Shown: piece after piece, positions 1-40,612 of the stretch
How the letters are laid out: every line of letters begins with the position of its first letter
Position numbering within the stretch: the stretch's first letter is position 1
Source: Escherichia virus TH16
Reading direction: 5' to 3' (one strand)
Length of the DNA: 40,612 nt
Sequence record: MT446393.1
Translations under genes and position numbers: made by a program
Notes under the pieces: generated by a model
Database searches by the model: none
Seen by the model: only the letters and a program-made list of their open reading frames with translations
Told to the model about the DNA's origin: nothing

Positions 1-668
1 AATCGCCATCGTGGAAGTCGTAGTTTTTAGACTTGACATACTTCGTGCGAATGAGACCTGAAGACGTATTGAAGTCCACTCCTTTTACCATGACCTCGCC
101 ATCAATCATCAGGCCAGTGCCTTCGTATCCAGCCTGCTTCAGGAACCACAGCCAGTCGCTAGACTCGGTCTCCCAGAGGTCCTCTCGAGAAGTGTCCAGC
201 CAGCTCAGGGCCGGAAGTGACTTAGACTCACGGCTCAACCATTGGGTCTCACCAGTAGGGAAGACCGGGAGGTTCAACCGGACACCATCGTACTTCACTT
301 CAGCTTCCAGCGACCCAGCAGCTTCCAGAGCCTTCTTAACGCCAGACTCAGAGTAATCTACAGCGCGGTGCGGGTTAGTTTTAATAGTTGTCATTGTGTT
401 ATCTCCATGTGTCGAGTTGGTTAGCGAGACAGTTAAGGAAGCCTGTGGCAGTGTTGTACAGTACGTCTTCATCGCGGTGTGCGAAGATCTTAAGCGCGAA
501 GATGTTACCAGCTCGGTCCTCGACTTGAAGTCTCATGAACTCTTTCCGAAGATGCGCCTCGTACCAGTCCTGCTGTATCACGCAGAAGTCTAACTGATAT
601 AGTCGGTTACACGCTGCTTTGAAAGCGTTTAGGTTGCCACTGTAAAGTCTGCCCATAGCGTTATGCTC
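1..668. repeat. Window-terminal direct duplication; 1..668 is identical to 39945..40612 (circular or overlapping assembly)
   Basis: Identical ORFs in the track at offset 39944 (33..356 and 39977..40300; 399..656 and 40343..40600). Confidence 0.9.
399..656 (-). CDS. gp1.2: gp1.2-like inhibitor of host dGTP triphosphohydrolase (85 aa); second copy at 40343..40600
   Basis: Translation MGRLYSGNLNAFKAA... matches the remembered T7 gp1.2 N-terminus and length; ATG start checked. Confidence 0.75.
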   Translation of the reverse strand: MGRLYSGNLNAFKAACNRLYQLDFCVIQQDWYEAHLRKEFMRLQVEDRAGNIFALKIFAHRDEDVLYNTATGFLNCLANQLDTWR

Positions 669-1242: not shown

Positions 1243-3924
1243 TTAAGCGAATGCAAAGTCTGAAGACAAGATGTCTTCGATATTCAGTTTACCTTTCTTC
1301 GGAAGCTCAGGCAACTTGTCGCGCTGACTCTCGTGAAGCTGGTATTCGAACTGCTCGTAGAAGTCCAGCAGCACATCGTTGTCGCGGTAGGTCTCGACCA
1401 TCGTCTCACGGACTCCACGGAACAGATACTCAGCGTCAGCCGGGATGGTCCCGAAGCTATCGTGAATCACTGCGAATGACACCACGCCATACTTGCGGTG
1501 CGTGTGGACTACAGTCTTGCGGAGGTGGCTACCATCTTGTGAGTGGACGAAGTTCGGGCTAATGCCTGACTCCTGCTTGTGCTTGTCCAGCTCTTTCTTC
1601 GTGCCTTTGTTGACTGTAGGCTGAAGGTTGAATGACCCTAAGAACATCAGGTTCAAACGTGTGGTATCCTTCTTGCGGTATTCCTGCCAGACCGGGAAAC
1701 CATCAGGTGTGACCCAGTGTACCGGAAGGCAAGGCTTCAGGATTTCGCCAGTCTTCTTGTCCTTCACTTCAGCAGCCAGCAGCTTGGCAGCGCCTTGAAG
1801 CCACTTCATCGCGTCTACCGCAGCAACTACGGTCACACTCACAGCCTCCCAGATCATCTTAGCCATGAAGCGAGACGCTTGGCTTGGCTCAGTGAACATA
1901 GCGCCAGACCCTGAGTCAATCGCTGGCATCACGATGTCCTCGTAAACTTGGTCTGCGAAGCCGTACTCTTTCGACCCGTAGGCCAGAGTCATGACTGAAC
2001 GCTTAGTGACCTTGCGTGACATACCGTAGGTCAGCCACTGACGGGCCAGCTCGCGTGTCCCCAGCTTGATACGCTCGGTAATCTCACCAGTTTTCTTGTC
2101 CTCGTGAGTCACCATCTCGTTGTCCGTACCGTTAACCAGCAGGACTTTAAGCTCCTCCTCAATTCGATCAGACACGATGCGGTAGATGTCTTGAACCTTA
2201 CCGGATGGCGTTAGGTTTACTGCATGTCCACCGATGTGGTCACGAAGCATCGCGCTGAAGTGCTGAATCCCAGAGCAGGACCCATCGAACGCTATCGGCA
2301 GCGAGCAGGAGTAAGACAGGCCGTGGTGCATTACGCCAGCATACTCGAAGCAGAACGCGAGGAAGCAGAACGGAGAGTCTACCTTACCCCACCACTCAAT
2401 GCTGTCCATCGGTGCCTTAGCAGCAGCCATGATGTTAGCGTGGTTGTCTTCCACCCACTTGATGCGCTCCTCGAAGGTGACTTTATCGACACCCGCACAG
2501 TTTGCACCGTGGACCTTCAGCCATTTAAAACCATCAGCACCAATAGGCTTGCCGACTGCCAGAGTCAGGAGACCCTTCTGCATGTCGTTACCCTGAGGGT
2601 TGAACATCGGTACAGCGTAGACGCGACCCCGCCAATCCATGTTGTATGGAAACCAGATGGCCTTGAACTGAGAGAACTTGTTCGCTTGGTTGACGATAAA
2701 GCTCAGTGACAATCTGCGTGACTGTCTGGCCTTCTCGCGGCGATAGATACCAGCAGCAGCCTTCTTCCATGCCTTGAGTTCTTCTTCAGTCTCACCCGCA
2801 TAGTCCTCAGGCTTCAGTGGTTCCATCTGAGGGATGTCATCAATAGGCGTGTTGTTCAGCTTCTCGACCATGTTCACCACGTCCAGAACCTTCTTGTTAA
2901 CTTTCCAAGGTGTATTCTGGATGATGTTCACAGCGTCATAGACTTCAGGCATGTACACGTCTTCGTAACGTGCTGCCGCAGACTTGGAACCTAAGCGAAT
3001 CAGCGGCAATGGTCTGCGACCTTTGGCCCAATACCCACCTCCTACGACACCAGTCCACGGCTTAGGTGGAACTACGCAAGGTTGATAGACTGGCGCGATA
3101 CCCGCAAGGCTGAAGCCACGTTGTGCCATCTTCTTGACCCAGAATTCTGACAGGTGGACCATCTCTACATCAGCCGCTGCATTGCCAGCACCATAACGCT
3201 TAAGCTCGACCAATTGTGTTGACTGGATGACAATCTCAAGCATCTTGATGCCAACGTGTACCGCCTCGGTAGGACTCCAAGTCCCCCACGCATCTTCCAG
3301 TTGACCTTGCTCCAGCATGGAGGCCTCAACCGCTTGCATGTAGGCTTTCTTGTAGGATGCCCCGGCTCGCTTGTTCAGGTTCTCAGCTATCGCCTTTTTG
3401 AAGTGCTCCTTCTCCTGATCACGGATTCGACCGAAGCGGATTTCATCCTCAAGTGTGCGACCTATCGCGGAGGCCATCGGTGTAATCGGTATCCCTTCAG
3501 GCTTGACCAGCTTGGAGAGAATGACCTTCAGTATGATAACCGCAGCAGACTCACAGGAGATGCGCATAGAGCGGTCCTTGACGGCCTTCTCTTCAGTGCT
3601 CAACATGGTGAACGCTACGCTAGGACGAGAGGTTGACAGCTTCCCGTCTTGACCTTCATGCCACTCCTTTACGGCTTGCGCAATCTTAGGGACCAGAGTC
3701 TGCATCAAAGGTTTGGCGACCTGATTGTCTGCCAGTTCCCCGCGCTCAGTCTGTCGCTCAAGGTTCTTGATGAAACGTCGCTCGCCTTCAGTGTATGCCT
3801 CATGCTCAAGCTGAAGCTGTTTGACTGCAAGGTCCTGCCCGTAGTGGTCAGCCAGCAGGTTAAACGGCTCAATGGCGTTTGACACATCAGAGAAGTCGTG
3901 TTTGTCAATAGAGATGACGCTCAT
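1243..3924 (-). CDS. gp1: Single-subunit DNA-dependent RNA polymerase (893 aa)
   Basis: Clear similarity to T7/T3 RNAP along the whole length (e.g. FPYNMDWRGRVYAV, ESGISPNFVHSQDGSHLRKTVV, C-terminal FAFA). Confidence 0.97.
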   Translation of the reverse strand: MSVISIDKHDFSDVSNAIEPFNLLADHYGQDLAVKQLQLEHEAYTEGERRFIKNLERQTERGELADNQVAKPLMQTLVPKIAQAVKEWHEGQDGKLSTSRPSVAFTMLSTEEKAVKDRSMRISCESAAVIILKVILSKLVKPEGIPITPMASAIGRTLEDEIRFGRIRDQEKEHFKKAIAENLNKRAGASYKKAYMQAVEASMLEQGQLEDAWGTWSPTEAVHVGIKMLEIVIQSTQLVELKRYGAGNAAADVEMVHLSEFWVKKMAQRGFSLAGIAPVYQPCVVPPKPWTGVVGGGYWAKGRRPLPLIRLGSKSAAARYEDVYMPEVYDAVNIIQNTPWKVNKKVLDVVNMVEKLNNTPIDDIPQMEPLKPEDYAGETEEELKAWKKAAAGIYRREKARQSRRLSLSFIVNQANKFSQFKAIWFPYNMDWRGRVYAVPMFNPQGNDMQKGLLTLAVGKPIGADGFKWLKVHGANCAGVDKVTFEERIKWVEDNHANIMAAAKAPMDSIEWWGKVDSPFCFLAFCFEYAGVMHHGLSYSCSLPIAFDGSCSGIQHFSAMLRDHIGGHAVNLTPSGKVQDIYRIVSDRIEEELKVLLVNGTDNEMVTHEDKKTGEITERIKLGTRELARQWLTYGMSRKVTKRSVMTLAYGSKEYGFADQVYEDIVMPAIDSGSGAMFTEPSQASRFMAKMIWEAVSVTVVAAVDAMKWLQGAAKLLAAEVKDKKTGEILKPCLPVHWVTPDGFPVWQEYRKKDTTRLNLMFLGSFNLQPTVNKGTKKELDKHKQESGISPNFVHSQDGSHLRKTVVHTHRKYGVVSFAVIHDSFGTIPADAEYLFRGVRETMVETYRDNDVLLDFYEQFEYQLHESQRDKLPELPKKGKLNIEDILSSDFAFA

Positions 3925-3993: not shown

Positions 3994-4016
3994 GAGTCCT
4001 ATAGTGATAATTAAGT
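3994..4016 (-). promoter_or_regulatory. Degenerate phage-promoter-like site upstream of the RNAP gene
   Basis: Minus-strand ACTTAATTATCACTATAGGACTC; mismatches at -14, -11 and +3 to +6. Confidence 0.35.
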
Positions 4017-4632: not shown

Positions 4633-4782
4633 TCACTCAGCGTGTAAGCTGTCGTGAATACGTTTGCGGCTACCGTAGACCACTTTCAATAGACGCATAG
4701 CCGCATCGTGGTTTAACCGCCCGGTCTTGACCAAAATCCGGGCGTTGGTGACGTGGTGCTGGCAGAGACCATAAGTTACCAT
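4633..4782 (-). CDS. Hypothetical early protein (49 aa from the internal ATG)
   Basis: Track ORF 4633..4827 begins with TTG; ATG at 4782 has a GAGG-type RBS. Confidence 0.4.
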   Translation of the reverse strand: MVTYGLCQHHVTNARILVKTGRLNHDAAMRLLKVVYGSRKRIHDSLHAE

Positions 4783-5300
4783 CTTGATGGCCTCACCTCT
4801 TGCAGCTTGGACACAAGGAAGAAGCAATCCACCAGTATCAACTTGCCATTCACGGCCCGTACATTGCGTGGGCTTATCTCAAACTGAATGTCAGACCCAA
4901 AGTTAGCGCAAGCATCCAGCGCCATCAGTACATCCATCAGACCTTCCCGCACAGTCTCAGTCTCAGACCTGTCGTGTGCAGCTTGGAATATCTCGTACCA
5001 CTTGTGATACAGGTCAGCAGGTCGAGAGAATCTCGGAGACCGTGAGAAGCAATCGCGCAGCACCTGATAGAGTTGCCACTGGTCATCATCTAAATGCGCC
5101 TTGAGTCCTCGTGTTGGTGGCATGTGGTCCATCTCATACGTGCCAACCTCAATCATCTTGACTTCAGGGAACAGTGGAGACTCAGGGAACCATCCCCATG
5201 CCATACACTCCTTTATTGGGTCAGAAGAGACCAGAAGTACACGCTTCCCGCAATCCTTCAGGTAGCACTTAGTGAACGCGCCTTTGCCTATCAGTTTCAT
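4776..5300 (-). CDS. gp0.7: gp0.7-like protein kinase, short form (174 aa) without the long C-terminal region of T7 gp0.7
   Basis: GKGAF glycine-rich segment and weak similarity to the remembered T7 gp0.7 kinase region; position before gene 1. Confidence 0.45.
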   Translation of the reverse strand: MKLIGKGAFTKCYLKDCGKRVLLVSSDPIKECMAWGWFPESPLFPEVKMIEVGTYEMDHMPPTRGLKAHLDDDQWQLYQVLRDCFSRSPRFSRPADLYHKWYEIFQAAHDRSETETVREGLMDVLMALDACANFGSDIQFEISPRNVRAVNGKLILVDCFFLVSKLQEVRPSRW

Positions 5301-5316: not shown

Positions 5317-5505
5317 TTAGAATGGATTAGACCATGTGCTGTACTGGTGGTTGGAAATCATGCCAGACTTGCAGAGACTGTCTGTATAGTCATTCCAATA
5401 CTGCTGTTTAGCTATGTCGTCGCCTCTGAAAGTCTCAGGGAACTCGCGGAAAGTCTCACGACATTCAGCTATCACTTCCGCTTTGGTCATCTTACGATAC
5501 GCCAT
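5317..5505 (-). CDS. Hypothetical early protein (62 aa), second gene of the early operon
   Basis: ATG start with AGGA upstream; preceded by the conserved leader element. Confidence 0.5.
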   Translation of the reverse strand: MAYRKMTKAEVIAECRETFREFPETFRGDDIAKQQYWNDYTDSLCKSGMISNHQYSTWSNPF

Positions 5506-5513
5506 CTTGTTTA

Positions 5514-5573
5514 TCCTATAGTTAGTGACTATCAGTCAGGCCGCTATGAGTCTAACGACCTGTAGTTAATCAC
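5514..5573. repeat. Copy 1 of a ~60-bp duplicated early leader element (contains TGACT-ATC-AGTCA inverted repeat)
   Basis: 21 bp identical to 5764..5784 plus flanking similarity to 5755..5822. Confidence 0.6.
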
Positions 5574-5746
5574 TGGCAATTGAACGCGTGGTCCAGGCAC
5601 ATATTGAACTCTTCCTGCGCAAGCTCGCGGCTATCCCACTCAGTCTTAGACAATCCGTAGATTATCACATGCTTAGTGTGATTCTTACAGTCTTTAGCCG
5701 TATACCAGATTAAGCCAAGATCTTCGTTCATCGCTATGATTTTCAT
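5570..5746 (-). CDS. Hypothetical first early protein (58 aa) in the position of T7 gene 0.3; not in the ORF track
   Basis: ATG with AGGAG RBS; translation MKIIAMNEDLGLIWYTAKDCKNHTKHVIIYGLSKTEWDSRELAQEEFNMCLDHAFNCQ. Confidence 0.5.
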   Translation of the reverse strand: MKIIAMNEDLGLIWYTAKDCKNHTKHVIIYGLSKTEWDSRELAQEEFNMCLDHAFNCQ

Positions 5747-5929: not shown

Positions 5930-5966
5930 TGGTACATACTACTTTAAGTCGTTACTGCTTGTCAAC
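5930..5966 (-). promoter_or_regulatory. Host sigma70-type early promoter (T7 A3-like)
   Basis: Minus-strand TTGACA, 18-nt spacer, TAGTAT; flanks resemble the remembered T7 A2/A3 region. Confidence 0.5.
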
Positions 5967-6107: not shown

Positions 6108-6329
6108 AGGTAATTTGAAATAATATTGATTAAGCTATCGTCGGCCCCATAGTGACTAAGAGGATATAGTCTTTGACTAACATGTATTAGACCTTAAGTC
6201 TATATCTTTGTGTCTATTAACTGTAGGTCTGTGACTGTAAGCTGTGAGTGTCTTATGGTTGTGACTGTAGGTTAGTGAGACTGTAGGTGTATGACGTAAT
6301 GTTATACTATAACACTATACAGATAGAGA

Positions 6330-6502
6330 CTCAGAGACAGACCCATAGTCCCAACCTATCGTCCAACCTCCAGCCATAGCCACTACCTATCGTCGACCTA
6401 ACGTCTTGACCATCGGTCCAACCCTATGATAGACTGGGGTAGGGCCTTTGGTCTGACTTAAAGAGGGCCTATGGGGAGACTTTAGGTTCTTGAACTGTGA
6501 GA
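6330..6502. repeat. Collapsed terminal-repeat region; physical genome left end near 6502 on the minus strand
   Basis: Minus strand from 6502 reads TCTCACAGTTCAAGAACCTAAAGTCTCCCCATAGG..., resembling remembered T7/T3 left ends; repeat extent is an estimate. Confidence 0.45.
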
Positions 6503-6739
6503 TGTGGTCTCAAACTTTTGGTCCAAAACTCATCGTCACTACTGTAGGCCTAAGCCACTGTAGGTCAAGGACCGTAGGTCAGGCGACACTAGGATAGACC
6601 AATAAGTAGGATGACCCTAAGTGAGCTTCTATTAAGGTGTTACCTAAAGTCCTTGACTACAGTAGCTAAGGTCAGTAGAGTAGCGTCAGCTATGAACTGA
6701 CCTTAGGTCTTACGCTCATGAATAGTTACCATGATTGCG

Positions 6740-6898
6740 TTAATTACACTGAGAGACCAGAGAACATACGAGAGTCTCGACCCACCCGACCCACTGACTT
6801 CCAGCAGTAACGCCAGCAGCAAGTAGAACAGCAGCAAGAAACCTGTATGTAGCTCGATTGGTCGCCAGAGCTTTAAGTACAGCTTTGGTCTTTGCCAT
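6740..6898 (-). CDS. gp19.5: gp19.5-like small hydrophobic protein (52 aa), not in the ORF track
   Basis: AGGAGG RBS; position after terminase; translation MAKTKAVLKALATNRATYRFLAAVLLAAGVTAGSQWVGWVETLVCSLVSQCN. Confidence 0.45.
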   Translation of the reverse strand: MAKTKAVLKALATNRATYRFLAAVLLAAGVTAGSQWVGWVETLVCSLVSQCN

Positions 6899-7078: not shown

Positions 7079-7101
7079 CTTCCCTATAGTGATAGTTAAG
7101 T
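7079..7101 (-). promoter_or_regulatory. Phage RNAP promoter downstream of terminase, reading toward the genome end (phiOR-like)
   Basis: Minus-strand CTTAACTATCACTATAGGGAAGA. Confidence 0.6.
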
Positions 7102-7195: not shown

Positions 7196-8962
7196 CTAGT
7201 GGAGCGTAACGTATGACCCTAGTCCAAGCTCGTCGTCCGTATCGTTAGTTACCCGGACCCCATTGTCCCAGAACTCAGTGTGGATGGACTCGAAGCCTTT
7301 CCGTGGGTTCTCCATCTGTTCCTCCAGCCACTCCTCAGTGACTTCACGTTCGCCTTTGTTGGCATCCTTCGCCATAGACTCAACGAAGAACTGTACACCG
7401 ATAGCCAGCGCATCAAGTCGGTCATCGTGTGCCAAGGCTCCACGCTCACGAGAGATACGGGTCATCTGGTAGAAGAGAGAGTAGATAGGGTTACGAACAC
7501 CGTCCTTATCAGAGGCCGACTGGTAGTCTTGGACGATAGCAGCAGCGTTAACGATAAGTCGGTGAGACCCCATGATAGGCTCCAGAACGTCACAGATGCG
7601 GAGTTCTTTCTGACCCTTACTCTTCACTTCAGTTACAGCAGCAGGATGGATACGGGCCGCTACAGGCTTGAATAACTCAAGGTACATACCATCACCGAAG
7701 TTACCCTCAATGACGTATTCGTTTACCTTCCACTTACGACCAATCTTAGCCAAGGCTTCTAGCGTAGAGTCCTCATAACCACCACGCATACCTCCAACTT
7801 CCATAGCGAAGATGTAGCCGTTGAGCTGATACAGTACCGCATAGCCAGTTTCATCCTTACCACGACCACTAGGGTCAATGACCAGAATCTTCTGGGTGTA
7901 CGAACTGAAGGCAGAACCTACAGTCTGATACGTGTGGTATGAGTCACCCATGAGTCCAACGTTAGGAACGTCCTCACGCTTGTTCTGAGGGTTTGGCAAC
8001 CATTGGTAGACCATTGGGCTGGACGCTGGGTCCAAGTCCGCTACGATAAGGTCACGGAGCTTCAGAGGGTACTTCTCAGCATCACTCAGGTTCGGGTTAA
8101 GCATGAACTGCAGAGCGAAGCCAGCTTTACCATAGGACAGCTCACGTTCCTTCAGGTCCGTATCATCGAATCGTACCTCATCGGTCGGACGCCAGTAGAA
8201 GGGCTCAGGGTCCTCTTCAAGCTCTGCCTGAAGCATCGGTGCCAGACGGTCGCCGTAAGACTGCCAGTCCTTCCTGTCGCGTGGATAACGAGCCGGCCAG
8301 ATAGTAGTGGTATATCCACGGCCTTCAAGCTCACGATACAGGGTCATCTCGTTCTGAGGAGTACCCAGATAGATGATTGTGCCTCCAGGCTTCAGGATAG
8401 CGTCGAACTCTTTAACAAGCTCTGACAGACGGTCTCGTGCAGCCTGAGTCGCTGAGTTGTTAGGAACCTCCACGTCATCTGCAATCAGGATGTCAGCACG
8501 ACTACCAGTCAACTGACCAGTGATACCAACGGACTTAACCGAAGGTGAGTGGTCTGGCTTGGCTGGCCCAACGTCGAAGCTGATAACCGCATCTCGCTGT
8601 CTCTGCTTAGGTTTGAGTTCCTGAAGCTGAGGCATGAGGTCGATGATTCGCTTGATGAAGATGGAGTTAGCATCTGCTCGTTCCTTTGAGGCCGACACAA
8701 TCATGAACTTCAAGTCTGGGTTGTTCCATAGTTTCCAGACCACGAAACCACAGGTCAGAAACGACTTGCCAATACCACGGAACGCCTGAAGGATGAAGCG
8801 GCGATTATCCCCAGCAGCCAGCTTCTTACACATATCTATCTGGCAGCGGGTTGGAACCGGAAGGCTAAGAGCTTTCCAGAGAACGAAGATGAAGAACACG
8901 AAGTCGTCCCTCATCCTTTGGGTCATTTCTGCCTGTCTTTCAGCGGGTGTTTTCTTAGACAT
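7196..8962 (-). CDS. gp19: Terminase large subunit / DNA maturase B (588 aa)
   Basis: Length and sequence similar to T7 gp19; ATG start and TAG stop checked. Confidence 0.95.
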
Positions 8963-9392
8963 ATAGTCCCTCCAACATTAGGTCCCGGACAGCGATAGCC
9001 TCCTCTAAAGTGGGACGTGTTGTGCGCATATAGGCATTCCCGCGTTTAACCTGAATCCTATAACCATTCTGGTGATGGGTAACGCACTTCACTCCCGTCT
9101 TAGAGTCATAATGGCTACCAGTGTTCCAAGTGTTCTCAGCAGCAGTAACGAGCCGTAAGTTACTTAAGGTGTTATTGCTAGGGTTCCTGTCGATGTGGTC
9201 TATTTGCATACCATGTGGTATAGGACCATTGGTTAGTTCCCATATCACACGATGCGCCCGCTTACTGCCTAGACTTCGTGTCTGTACTATCCAATATCCC
9301 ATCAGACTTAATGTCCCCACAGGCTTTCCAGTCCTAACGGAGCCCAGACCGGATGGACTAGCCGGGTCCACTTTGTAGTAATCACTTAACAC
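8955..9392 (-). CDS. HNH homing endonuclease with a C-terminal AP2-like domain (145 aa)
   Basis: HRVIWEL...[20 protein letters not shown]...EN HNH motif; GTG start with AAGGAGG RBS; paralog of 38895..39377. Confidence 0.8.
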
Positions 9393-10489: not shown

Positions 10490-13051
10490 TTAAATGGTTT
10501 TTACTTCCCATCGACGGTCATAATAGTGGCTGAATCCACAATACGTTAAAGTCATATGGACAACCGCCATTGACATAGAAGCAGTCGCGGTATCAACACG
10601 AATAAACGTTTTACCGCCCGCCACCATTTTACTTACGGTAATCCCATCAAGAGATTTATCCCCGGCATCCTTATTCGACCATAGAACACCAGAGGCTACG
10701 TTTGCTTCTGTTGACCCAGAAATACTAAACAATAACCGACCTCCTGCTTCGGTGCCCCTCAGCCCATTCTTATTTACGGGTATGATAGACATCTCCCCCG
10801 CCAGAAAGCACCCACCTTCAAATCTGCTTTCTTCTCCAACAGCGGTAAGAAGGATATCTACACAACGGTTCCACGGTAGGATGAACGACGCTGTCTCAGT
10901 TCGTACTTGTCTGAAATACGCTTCGCTGTTAACCGCTGCGGATGACATAAGCACCCCGTTATATGAATTTGCACCTTCAAGTGGCGCAGACCCGTAAACC
11001 CTGCCTCCGACGGATGAGCTTTTTACAAGTGTGTTAGAGTAGACAGCAGTGCCATCGGTGAGTTTGATGAATCTGAACATTTCGCCAAAATAGAACGAGT
11101 TACCGTATGCACCAACGTTAAGGCCGTCCACCTTATTTATCAATTGGATAGTATAATCGGATTTTACATACCCGGAATCCAATACAATACTACCTTTAGG
11201 CATGCGTGATTCATTCTTCGGCGGGGTTATAAATCTCAATACCCCAGTATTCATAGACGACTGAATCCAACACGACACGTTGCGAAACACGACTTTATAG
11301 GTATCGTCAGTTCCTTCGTATGCGGAAAAGTCTAACGCATCGACGCCGTTTATACCCTCTATCCCTAAACCATCGATCTCCAAGCTGCGGATATTACCCA
11401 TAAAAGAGTGAGGCTTGATACACCCGTCAGCAGCGATATTCGTCGATTTTATGTACACAATGGGTGCGCCTGATGCGGGCACTTCAGGGGCATATGTAGT
11501 ACGGTTAATCGCTGCGCCCCATAAATAGCCGTAGTCGCAGTGGTGCGCCCATATCGCTCTCATATCCAGCGAGGTGGAACCGGATACCGCAAAGCCATAG
11601 GTGCAATCGTAAGCATAAAGATTGCTGACAGTGCTTACGAAAGCAGCATTAGGGAACGCGAATTTGTAGTGATAGAACTCGACGTTATTTATGTCAAACA
11701 GCTTGCCTCCACCACCGTTTGTCCCGGGATCACTTATCAGTAAAGGGCACCCGGAATACGCGCTATCTGCGTTACGAAACGCGATGTTATTTACGTGCGG
11801 ATTGTGCGCCCATAGGGTTGAAATAAACCCGCCTTTCCCTGACGTGTAAATAATGCTCTGTCGTGGTTTGACTCCTCGTAAGTCTAAACTCTTGCCAGCC
11901 CATCTGTTTAAGCTAATATCAATCTGGGTGGTACCTATGTAGATTGGCTGTTCGATTAATAAAGGAATATTGTGCGCAATACTTGCGGTATACGCAGCCA
12001 GCATCGCGGCCCCGTCGTTATGGGTTCCGGAAAGGTCGGCAGCCCCCATGCTTGGCGCTTTAGGATATGGAGTTCCCTGAATGGTGCTGCCGTCGATATA
12101 TGGAGCATCCATCCATGCGCCAAACATTTTAGGGGTAATTCCCCGAACGTTTGATAAGTCCCTTTTCCAGCGCTTACCTCCACTAGTAATTATAACAACG
12201 CCATTATCATCATTAGTTGTGGAATCTGCTAAGTCCGCATAGAACCACCCACCACCAGAATCACCAGACTCATTGGGTGTAATTGATGTTGTATGTTTTT
12301 CTACAAAAATGCGCTGGCCATCAACATCAGGTTCAATAGTTCTTAATGTTGATATATCATCGCATTTGCCGATTAACTTAAATCCATCGCTTTTATTTAA
12401 TTGACTCCTTAATGAAGCATCACCAACACTAACCCACGCACCTAGTCCAATCCCACCGGAAGTTTCAGGAGTTGAACCAGCAGGAACGTTCTTTGGAAGC
12501 GTACCATCCCAGCGGTAATAATCACCATCCTCTTCCCATAGCAGGACCTCGTTCCATGTTGTAACGTTGAAGCCTTTCTCGAAGGAGCGACGGGTAATAT
12601 AGCCAATTCGACCAGCTTCCTTGATACTCGCAGCGATTCCTCGTGCTTCGTCCTCGCTATCCTTAGCGTTGCCAGCAGAGGTACCAGCAGCATCGGCATA
12701 TTCCTTCGCTAAGTCAACCGTTTGGTCTCGACCTTCTTCTGCAATATGGATAGCCTGAAGCTCTGCATTGGTCAGGTCACTAGCTGTCAACACTGAGCCA
12801 TTCCTGAAGTCTACCACTAAGTCAGTTCCAGTCTGACGGTGAATACGAACGATGTCGAAACCTGATTGGTCAACCAACATCTCAATCATCGTTGGATTAA
12901 GGAATCGGTAATCTCGACCAACTTCCAGTACACGGTTCATGGTAGGGTTAGAGCTATTCACCAGCGTAACAACAACAAACGTTCTGGCTAGGTAGTCGAA
13001 CTCAATCCTGTACTGAGTGTTTCCTGAAGGGAATTGTGTAATAGTGGACAT
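10490..13051 (-). CDS. gp17: Tail fibre / tailspike (853 aa): T7 gp17-like N-terminal adaptor with a large unrelated C-terminal region
   Basis: N-terminal ~150 aa align with T7 gp17 ([28 protein letters not shown]); the rest is Gly/Ser/Thr-rich and not T7-like. Confidence 0.9.
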
Positions 13052-30550: not shown

Positions 30551-30831
30551 TGCTTGAACCCCACGCTGATATTAGAGATGGTGGCACCGTCTTCCGGCAG
30601 CTCATCTTTCAGCTTGGACGCCAGCACAGACTTCAGGTGCAGCTCAATGGCTGCTTCTACCCCGTGCTCTACGGCAGTCTCTACCAGCTTACGTGTCAGC
30701 CCATCCTGCTTCTCTCCAGCGATGTAACCCTTTGTCATCTCAACCAACTCCTGAGAGTAATACTCTACCTCATCTACCGTAAAGACAATCTTCAGGTCGA
30801 ACTTACAGGTCAGGCGTTTTGTCATAGCCAT
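30547..30831 (-). CDS. gp5.5: gp5.5-like protein (94 aa from the ATG)
   Basis: MAMTK start as in T7 gp5.5; AAGGAG RBS; track ORF begins upstream at 30888. Confidence 0.7.
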   Translation of the reverse strand: MAMTKRLTCKFDLKIVFTVDEVEYYSQELVEMTKGYIAGEKQDGLTRKLVETAVEHGVEAAIELHLKSVLASKLKDELPEDGATISNISVGFKQ

Positions 30832-31144
30832 TAGCTTTCTCCTTCTTAATAAGTTTGCGCTCACGGTTCGTCTTGATGACGTGATCACGCTTTGGAATAC
30901 ACTGTAGGTGTTCTACGTTACAGCACCCACGATTCAAACACAAATGGTCTATCTCATAGCCATCTGGTATAGGCCCACGCTTCTGTTCCCACACCCATCT
31001 GTGAAACATAAACGCCTTGCGTCCAGGCTTACGGGCAGAGCCTACCGTGTACCGAAAGTATCCATCATGGTTTCTACGATGTGATACACAGACGATACAT
31101 CCAGTAGGCATCTTATGGAAGCGTAAGGTTGCTACACCTCCCAT
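30803..31144 (-). CDS. HNH endonuclease (113 aa) directly after the DNA polymerase gene
   Basis: Cys-rich HNH core (CIVC ... IDHLCLNRGCCNVEHL ... RDH); AAGGAG RBS. Confidence 0.8.
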   Translation of the reverse strand: MGGVATLRFHKMPTGCIVCVSHRRNHDGYFRYTVGSARKPGRKAFMFHRWVWEQKRGPIPDGYEIDHLCLNRGCCNVEHLQCIPKRDHVIKTNRERKLIKKEKANGYDKTPDL

Positions 31145-38894: not shown

Positions 38895-39377
38895 TTATAA
38901 TGAATCTCTTAAGGCTACTGCCTCGGCTATGGTCTTGGCATAACGGACCACACGTTCTCCATTAGCAACCTTCTTGATGCAGTATAGCTCTCGGCCTTTC
39001 ACTTTGGAGATGTGACGCTCTCCCGTGGCGTTGGTTGACATCTGGCCTTTGTTCTGGTTGTTCTCTGAGTGAGTCACCAGACGCAGGTTTGAAAGCCTGT
39101 TGTTGGAAGGGTTCCTGTCAATGTGGTCAATCTCCATACCATCTGGTATTTGGCCATATGCAAGTTCCCATATTACCCGATGTACCTGTAGGTGTTTGCG
39201 TCCCCACGGTGTCCTTACGTTTATTGTCCAATAGCCAGAAGTCTTCTTACTACCGACCCTTCTCCCAGAGTTAAGTGCCAGCCCTGAGGCCGACCTTTCA
39301 TCAACCTTAAATCTTGACTGTAGGATTGTCCTCAGTCCCTCGCCATTGGTAGAATGACGGGTGTCGCAGACTTCCAT
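38895..39377 (-). CDS. HNH homing endonuclease with AP2-like domain (about 160 aa from the ATG); overlaps the 3' end of the ligase gene
   Basis: [41 protein letters not shown]; ATG at 39377 with GGAGGAG RBS (track start 39512 is TTG). Confidence 0.8.
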   Translation of the reverse strand: MEVCDTRHSTNGEGLRTILQSRFKVDERSASGLALNSGRRVGSKKTSGYWTINVRTPWGRKHLQVHRVIWELAYGQIPDGMEIDHIDRNPSNNRLSNLRLVTHSENNQNKGQMSTNATGERHISKVKGRELYCIKKVANGERVVRYAKTIAEAVALRDSL

Positions 39378-40338
39378 CTGGTGTCTCCTCCATGTAGGTG
39401 ATTTGACAAGCCCACCCATTGTAGTAATCAGGGTCTGACTTAACGTTATCTGTGAACTCGGACATAAGGGCGCGACTAATGTTAGTTGCGGAGACCTCCA
39501 TCCCGTTCTCAAGCATCACGTCAAATCCGATGACCATGCCCTCGTTGGCTAGGCCATCCGTACCCCACACAGGGCGCACAACATGACCGTCTGCCTCTTC
39601 GCTCGGCTTCATCTTCCACATGCCAGACTTCTTGCCACGCTTCCAGCGTCCAAGAGGGTCTTTAACTACCAGACCTTCTTGCCCATCTGCGCGCTTCTCT
39701 TCGTACAAATCCTGAAGAGACTCAAGGTCGTACACTGTATGACTCTCAGATAATACCCAGTCGATTTCCGGGAAGTATTTCTGGAGGAGAGGGACGATAG
39801 CTTCGGCCTTCAGGCGAGTGACGCTATGGATAGGGCCTTCGGCTTTCGGGTCGGTGATGACGTTAAGGTCCACGATACCGTAGACGACCACCTTGATATG
39901 GGCTCGGTCCAGCCTGAACTGAGTAGTCTTGGACTTGAGGTCCCAATCGCCATCGTGGAAGTCGTAGTTTTTAGACTTGACATACTTCGTGCGAATGAGA
40001 CCTGAAGACGTATTGAAGTCCACTCCTTTTACCATGACCTCGCCATCAATCATCAGGCCAGTGCCTTCGTATCCAGCCTGCTTCAGGAACCACAGCCAGT
40101 CGCTAGACTCGGTCTCCCAGAGGTCCTCTCGAGAAGTGTCCAGCCAGCTCAGGGCCGGAAGTGACTTAGACTCACGGCTCAACCATTGGGTCTCACCAGT
40201 AGGGAAGACCGGGAGGTTCAACCGGACACCATCGTACTTCACTTCAGCTTCCAGCGACCCAGCAGCTTCCAGAGCCTTCTTAACGCCAGACTCAGAGTAA
40301 TCTACAGCGCGGTGCGGGTTAGTTTTAATAGTTGTCAT
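39307..40338 (-). CDS. gp1.3: ATP-dependent DNA ligase (343 aa from the ATG); its 5' part is duplicated at 1..394
   Basis: KYDGVR adenylation motif and strong similarity to T7 ligase (MKPSEEADG, DGSLRHPSF..RGTEDNP); GGAG RBS before the ATG at 40338. Confidence 0.95.
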   Translation of the reverse strand: MTTIKTNPHRAVDYSESGVKKALEAAGSLEAEVKYDGVRLNLPVFPTGETQWLSRESKSLPALSWLDTSREDLWETESSDWLWFLKQAGYEGTGLMIDGEVMVKGVDFNTSSGLIRTKYVKSKNYDFHDGDWDLKSKTTQFRLDRAHIKVVVYGIVDLNVITDPKAEGPIHSVTRLKAEAIVPLLQKYFPEIDWVLSESHTVYDLESLQDLYEEKRADGQEGLVVKDPLGRWKRGKKSGMWKMKPSEEADGHVVRPVWGTDGLANEGMVIGFDVMLENGMEVSATNISRALMSEFTDNVKSDPDYYNGWACQITYMEETPDGSLRHPSFYQWRGTEDNPTVKI

Positions 40339-40612
40339 TGTGTTATCTCCATGTGTCGAGTTGGTTAGCGAGACAGTTAAGGAAGCCTGTGGCAGTGTTG
40401 TACAGTACGTCTTCATCGCGGTGTGCGAAGATCTTAAGCGCGAAGATGTTACCAGCTCGGTCCTCGACTTGAAGTCTCATGAACTCTTTCCGAAGATGCG
40501 CCTCGTACCAGTCCTGCTGTATCACGCAGAAGTCTAACTGATATAGTCGGTTACACGCTGCTTTGAAAGCGTTTAGGTTGCCACTGTAAAGTCTGCCCAT
40601 AGCGTTATGCTC

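Follow-up and report, generated by a model that had tools for sequence, protein, structure and literature searches.

The 668 bp shared by the two ends of the window (the whole stretch of DNA analyzed, 40,612 nucleotides of Escherichia virus TH16, record MT446393.1) are, in a reading we hold with high confidence, untrimmed redundancy from the circular assembly graph of a T7-like phage whose terminal repeat has been collapsed. Overlap between contig ends is a well-documented artefact for phages with terminal repeats and concatemers, and as such is already known.

The Window Is One 39,944-bp Unit Continued Past Its Own Start

A sequence-only reading of the window had proposed that bases 1..668 are the same sequence as 39945..40612. 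Comparison of the window with itself bore this out, with 668 of 668 positions identical and 0 mismatches; 668 nt is also the longest prefix that equals a suffix of the window. At a fixed offset, the probability of a 668-nt identity by chance is about 10^-402. Removal of one copy leaves 40612 − 668 = 39,944 bp, precisely the unit length that had been claimed. No other long repeats were found within the 39,944-bp unit, where the next-longest repeat families are the 31-nt phage-promoter copies and one 133-nt stretch, 71% identical, in two HNH endonuclease paralogues. A 51-mer from within the overlap had no match in the JGI metagenomes. The features at the overlap are as follows.

1..668, no strand: contig-end overlap, left copy; 0 mismatches against 39945..40612; in our reading assembly redundancy and no biological repeat
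39945..40612, no strand: contig-end overlap, right copy; a second assembly, the Logan contig, passes from 669 to 40612/39944 without duplication
39307..40338, minus strand: ATP-dependent DNA ligase, complete, T7 gene 1.3 homologue, 343 aa (phrog_114, E=3e-82; PF01068/PF17879)
1..394, minus strand: truncated ligase duplicate, codons 1-131; its translation is the N terminus of the full ligase
399..656 and again 40343..40600, minus strand: gene 1.2 homologue, dGTPase inhibitor (phrog_2949, E=1.7e-33; PF10922)

The two gene 1.2 copies and the ligase fragment at 1..394 are there because of the end overlap. The unit does begin inside the ligase gene, as had been noted: window base 1, which is the same as base 39945, falls in ligase codon 132 of 343. 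Since the window breaks inside this gene, the break point is arbitrary. A 369-aa ligase ORF from the first ATG at 40416 was considered and rejected; it has no exact match because the real start is 40338, which gives the 343-aa protein.

A Second Assembly Closes the Same Circle at a Different Position

Logan contig SRR11772943_752 was retrieved by exact-protein match of the tail spike, terminase, and portal, and was rebuilt from three overlapping pieces. The contig is 39,974 bp long and starts and ends with the same 30 bases. Once these are counted a single time, its opposite strand matches the 39,944-bp unit exactly, rotated to another starting point. Its breakpoint lies at window 9017/8988, outside the ligase gene, and it is continuous across the window's wrap point. 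The earlier proposal that the window wraps around a single unit therefore agrees with the Logan contig, which is the same unit closed elsewhere with a 30-bp overlap. An assembly overlap predicts just this outcome, the same circle from two assemblers with different openings, and a physical end would not. The Logan assembly is an independent method but probably used the same reads as the window, so it is perhaps not independent data. Counting against the overlap explanation, 668 bp is no usual k-mer size (55/77/99/127/141). Assemblers based on k-mers would leave k or k-1 bases, and the expected source of the 668 bp is an overlap-layout or long-read assembler or a step of path extension.

A contig with a real direct terminal repeat (DTR) would also give an exact match of prefix and suffix, and some podoviruses have DTRs several hundred bases long. 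On these grounds the 668 bp could be taken for a genuine long DTR, with the virion ends at the window ends, inside ligase. We consider this barely conceivable. The boundary would interrupt ligase at codon 132, and in no relative compared are the ends in the ligase gene. Moreover, the Logan assembly of the unit breaks elsewhere and crosses the wrap point without duplication, and a conserved K1F/T7-type terminal sequence, together with its flanks, is intact at 6502..6325.

An exact-pattern scan of IMG/VR found one contig only, UViG_3300045988_000036 (40,085 bp), which was considered as 39,944 + 141 and rejected. The contig is merely an 80-95% relative, and the arithmetic is thus a coincidence.

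The Phage Is a Kayfunavirus with a T7 Gene Set

Judged from its sequence relatives, the phage is a Kayfunavirus (K1F-like, T7 family; Autographiviridae, Studiervirinae). Nearest relatives were sought by megablast against 50,697 phage records, by genome half, and Kayfunavirus records showed 92-96% identity over 81-95% of each half. Specifically, the closest Kayfunavirus records to the first half of the genome have 92-94% identity over 81-86%, and the second half reaches up to 95.9% over 95% with "Enterococcus phage EFA-1" (UNVERIFIED_ORG, classified as Kayfunavirus). Because no record in the phage collection attains 95% identity genome-wide, the phage probably represents an undescribed Kayfunavirus species.

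All genes and long ORFs are on the minus strand, and the cumulative GC skew drops steadily from end to end, just two 1-kb windows being slightly positive. PHROG and Pfam scans and the gene table of the identical public contig revealed the T7 gene set with one copy of each gene: RNA polymerase, genes 1.1 and 1.2, ligase, RNAP inhibitor, gp2.5 SSB, endonuclease I, and amidase; primase-helicase, DNA polymerase, exonuclease, portal, scaffold, capsid, tube, and nozzle; and gp13-16, tail spike, holin, small terminase, and a T7-type large terminase. A gene 0.7 kinase homologue was not seen among the called genes, and tRNA and Rfam scans gave no matches. The phage promoter consensus AACTATCACTATAGGGA has 11 matches, all on the minus strand, where 0.05 would be expected by chance. 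Two of these genes are given here with their coordinates.

1243..3924, minus strand: single-subunit phage RNA polymerase, gene 1 (phrog_414, 1058 bits; PF14700, PF00940)
7196..8962, minus strand: terminase large subunit, T7 type, 588 aa (PF22530, Terminase-T7_RNaseH-like)

A phage-type promoter match with 3 mismatches lies at 3996..4012 (minus strand), just 5′ of the RNA polymerase gene. In the early region, the ORFs at 4776..5300, 5570..5746, and 5317..5505 (minus strand; 174, 58, and 62 aa, respectively) match PHROGs of unknown function or nothing, and the Logan gene table contains a 49-aa PF26807 (Phage_T7_GP04) ORF at 4633..4782.

Three HNH_3 (PF13392) homing-endonuclease ORFs, all on the minus strand, lie just upstream of the large terminase (8955..9392), directly after DNA polymerase (30803..31144), and overlapping the ligase 3′ end (38895..39377). 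The first and last are the paralogues with the 133-nt stretch at 71% identity, and their proteins can be aligned. The ORF at 38895..39377 is without a start codon where the homology begins; the in-frame ATG at 39377 would overlap ligase by 71 nt. A frameshift in this endonuclease was considered and rejected, as ATG 39377 gives a 160-aa protein that spans the whole paralogue-homologous region.

The tail spike (10490..13051, minus strand) is a mosaic of a T7-type N-terminal adaptor, a Tail_spike_N domain, and a beta-helix, and is not an endosialidase. Its receptor-binding part is 74% identical to that of Kayfunavirus TH20, followed by the siphoviruses EC3-1 and the Kagunavirus record NRG857CP3 (66%), and then by records of unrelated phages whose genomes are much larger (48-155 kb; 51-57%). 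These matches in siphoviruses and in unrelated larger phages suggest that the host-range module may have been exchanged horizontally.

Permuted genomes produced by headful packaging likewise close as circles, as seen in the two assemblies, and a circularly permuted, terminally redundant genome without fixed ends would be another route to circular assembly. The data make this extremely unlikely. The large terminase is of the T7 type (PF22530), and K1F-type terminases cluster with those of short-DTR packagers (Baig et al. 2017, PMC5582158). In addition, the terminal sequence is conserved, to the base, in relatives with ends mapped on virion DNA. Neither a headful-type terminase nor an absence of conserved fixed ends was found.

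A Single Copy of a Predicted K1F-Type Terminal Repeat Lies at 6502..6325

The only sizeable noncoding stretch lies between the terminase stop at 7196 and the first early ORF at 5746. The sequence-only reading had put the true start of the linear genome near 6502, on the minus strand, and homology places it there to the base: in a seven-sequence alignment the first base of the K1F, SH3, SH4, and T7 records, aligned TCTCACAG, falls in the column of window 6502. The minus strand from 6502 starts TCTCACAGTTCAAG, or more fully TCTCACAGTTCAAGAACCTAAAGTCTCCCCATAGG. The features around this position are listed here.

6325..6502, minus strand: predicted DTR, single collapsed copy, 178 bp; alignable from end to end with the DTRs of K1F and EPr2
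6503..6530, minus strand: right-end unique sequence, 28 nt directly upstream of the repeat; identical to the bases before the K1F right-hand DTR
6318..6324, minus strand: ATCTGTA motif directly after the repeat; T7 has ATCTGTT there
7081..7097, minus strand: perfect-consensus phage-RNAP promoter in the T7 phiOR position, between the terminase gene and the repeat
6740..6898, minus strand: 52-aa ORF in the T7 gene 19.5 position, last gene before the right end; Logan contig gene call
5936..5965, minus strand: candidate sigma-70-like early promoter downstream of the left end; 10/12 consensus match only

Over its full length, the sequence from 6502 to 6326 matches the K1F 178-bp repeat at 162 of 178 positions (91% identity). 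The window repeat is 89% identical to the annotated EPr2 DTR and, over its first 35 nt, shares 83% identity with the left end of T7. It ends TCTCT/ATCTGT, and because the T7, EPr2, and SH4 repeats all end ...CT/ATCTGT, we placed its right boundary at 6325, with an uncertainty of about 1-5 nt; the boundary is 1 base earlier in the K1F record and 4-5 nt later in the SH3 annotation. The hexamer ATCTGT directly after the DTR is conserved in T7, K1F, EPr2, SH3, and SH4. We take this type of motif after the repeat to be the class II pause site of T7 RNA polymerase at the concatemer junction.

Annotations in the group give DTRs of different lengths (165, 178/179, 183/184, and 190/191 bp), and the SH3 right boundary is annotated past ...CT/ATCTGT, both of which would fit fixed T7-like ends that lie off the K1F-homologous positions, with a repeat that differs in length by more than a few bases or a shifted boundary. 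Such a displacement is nevertheless quite unlikely here: no compared record departs from the common left boundary, the motif at the right boundary is shared by T7, EPr2, and SH4, and the length differences among the relatives are due to internal indels and not to moved boundaries. We also judge it very unlikely that the virion ends lie away from the K1F-homologous site altogether, be it through a terminal redundancy relocated to the 668 bp or through substantially shifted packaging boundaries.

Returning to the K1F-homologous site, the left virion end is inferred by homology to be 6502 (minus strand), with the repeat running from 6502 to 6325 (178 bp). The window contains one copy of the terminal repeat, which was therefore collapsed in assembly. 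The description of the genome as complete consequently needs division: it stands for the unique sequence and fails for the second copy of the ∼178-bp terminal repeat, which is absent from the assembly. The virion DNA is predicted to be ∼40,122 bp (39,944 + 178) and to run along the minus strand from 6502 to 669, from 40612 to 6503, and then through a second 6502 to 6325. This molecule would open TCTCACAG and close ...GAGTCTCT, with the 178 bp at both ends.

The 52-aa ORF at 6740..6898 had no Pfam match. Sigma-70 and terminator scans near the junction returned nothing above chance expectation, no phiOL-type promoter was found at ≤3 mismatches between the repeat and the first early gene, and folding of the repeat as single-stranded DNA revealed no special structure (z = 0.24). 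CCTACAG heptamers are somewhat concentrated around the repeat, with 5 of the 17 copies in the unit falling within 6150-6720, flanking it; heptamers of this type occur on the minus strand at 6578, 6564, and 6548 upstream of the repeat and at 6287, 6271, and 6227 downstream. Their arrangement resembles that of the CCTAAAG arrays beside the terminal repeat of T7. Two of the unit's three copies of GAYGATAGG are inside the repeat, at 6394 and 6363.

Origin of the Overlap and Consequences for the Record

In T7, replication leads to head-to-tail concatemers in which neighboring genomes share one repeat copy, and gp18/gp19 processes the junction, the repeat being duplicated as the DNA is packaged. Junction processing has been linked to phiOR transcription and to a pause of the phage RNA polymerase at ATCTGTT, past the repeat. 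The T7-like nature of the present phage would account for a circular assembly graph. In the virion, the phage DNA would be a linear molecule carrying a short exact direct repeat at its termini, and during replication it would be a head-to-tail concatemer in which adjacent genomes share a single repeat copy. If T7 biology holds, terminase (gp18/gp19) would cut the concatemers at the junction and the repeat would be duplicated in packaging. On a virion or a concatemer template alike, reads from the right end would join reads from the left end via the repeat and yield a circular graph. The repeat would thereby be reduced to one copy and the contig opened arbitrarily, here at ligase codon 132. The assembler, or a downstream pipeline, would then have gone around the circular graph and left the overlap untrimmed.

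The importance of these findings is one of genome bookkeeping and not of biology. Left untrimmed, the overlap makes gene 1.2 count twice, gives rise to a truncated ligase call at the first bases of the contig, and adds 668 bp to the genome length. A circular record would instead hide both the 178-bp repeat and the linear topology of the molecule; the virion genome would come out about 178 bp too short, with a gene map that has the wrong start and the wrong strand. The correct representation would be obtained by trimming 668 bp, rotating, reverse-complementing, and adding the second repeat copy, for ∼40,122 bp. The term DTR itself names two things, the overlap of contig ends that serves as a completeness flag and the terminal repeat of the phage DNA; in this case they are different sequences about 6 kb apart.

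Comparison with Known Phages and Assembly Signatures

A close parallel for the ends is K1F (NC_007456), whose record carries an exact 178-bp DTR at both ends. Its terminal sequence TCTCACAGTTCAAGAACCT... is 91% identical over 178 bp, the preceding 28 nt are identical, and the gene order is the same. The two phages differ in the tail spike, which here is not of the K1F endosialidase type, and in the early region, where the annotated K1F gene 0.3 protein is without an annotated equivalent.

The junction also has the T7 arrangement of terminase, phiOR-type promoter, ORF in the gene 19.5 position, repeat, ATCTGT, and early promoters; the T7 record has phiOR and gene 19.5 annotated at the equivalent positions and the A1-A3 promoters in the equivalent early region. 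The repeat differs from that of T7 in its length (178 versus 160 bp) and has diverged beyond the first 35 nt, the motif after it is ATCTGTA rather than ATCTGTT, and no phiOL-type promoter was found downstream of it at ≤3 mismatches.

The Kayfunavirus Citrobacter phages SH3, SH4, and SH5 provide a comparison with ends measured on virion DNA, whereas here the ends are predicted. The SH3 and SH4 records begin at the same aligned base as window 6502, and the SH3 sequencing primer GCCCTACCCCAGTCTATCAT is an exact match to window 6445..6426. Hamdi et al. (2016) obtained DTRs of 183, 190, and 190 bp for SH3, SH4, and SH5, respectively, by run-off sequencing of virion DNA, and cite 179 bp for the K1F DTR (PMC4925675), 1 nt above the 178 bp of the K1F record. 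Repeats in these three phages reach 183-191 bp via internal insertions, unlike the repeat in the window.

For Providencia phage EPr2, a 179-bp "DTR (short)" is annotated. The EPr2 record (OM256482.1) has this DTR annotated four times, at 1-179, 501-679, 40583-40761, and 41083-41261, and its positions 180-861 recur unchanged at 40262-40943; this reflects either a 500-bp junction segment duplicated in the record or a tandem duplication around the repeat of the phage itself. Record PP328844.1 shows the same four-place DTR pattern. The record MT350292.1 ("Enterococcus phage EFA-1", UNVERIFIED_ORG), the closest relative for half of the genome, is labeled an Enterococcus phage though it is a Kayfunavirus. 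Its ends are redundant, with 96% identity between the first 497 nt and the last 483 nt, and its start lies 112 nt upstream of TCTCACAG.

Short-read assemblies of T7-like phages have been described in which DTRs are lost or placed mid-contig (PMC10438801). According to the CheckV paper, contig-end repeats often come from the assembly of circular genomes or of linear genomes that replicate through concatemers, and assemblers open such contigs at a random location (PMC8116208). The window differs from a CheckV-type overlap in length, 668 bp versus a k-mer length (55, 77, 99, 127), whereas the Logan assembly has a k-mer-sized overlap of 30 bp. In its arbitrary opening and in the circular or concatemeric template from which it would derive, the window is like the CheckV "DTR contig" signature.
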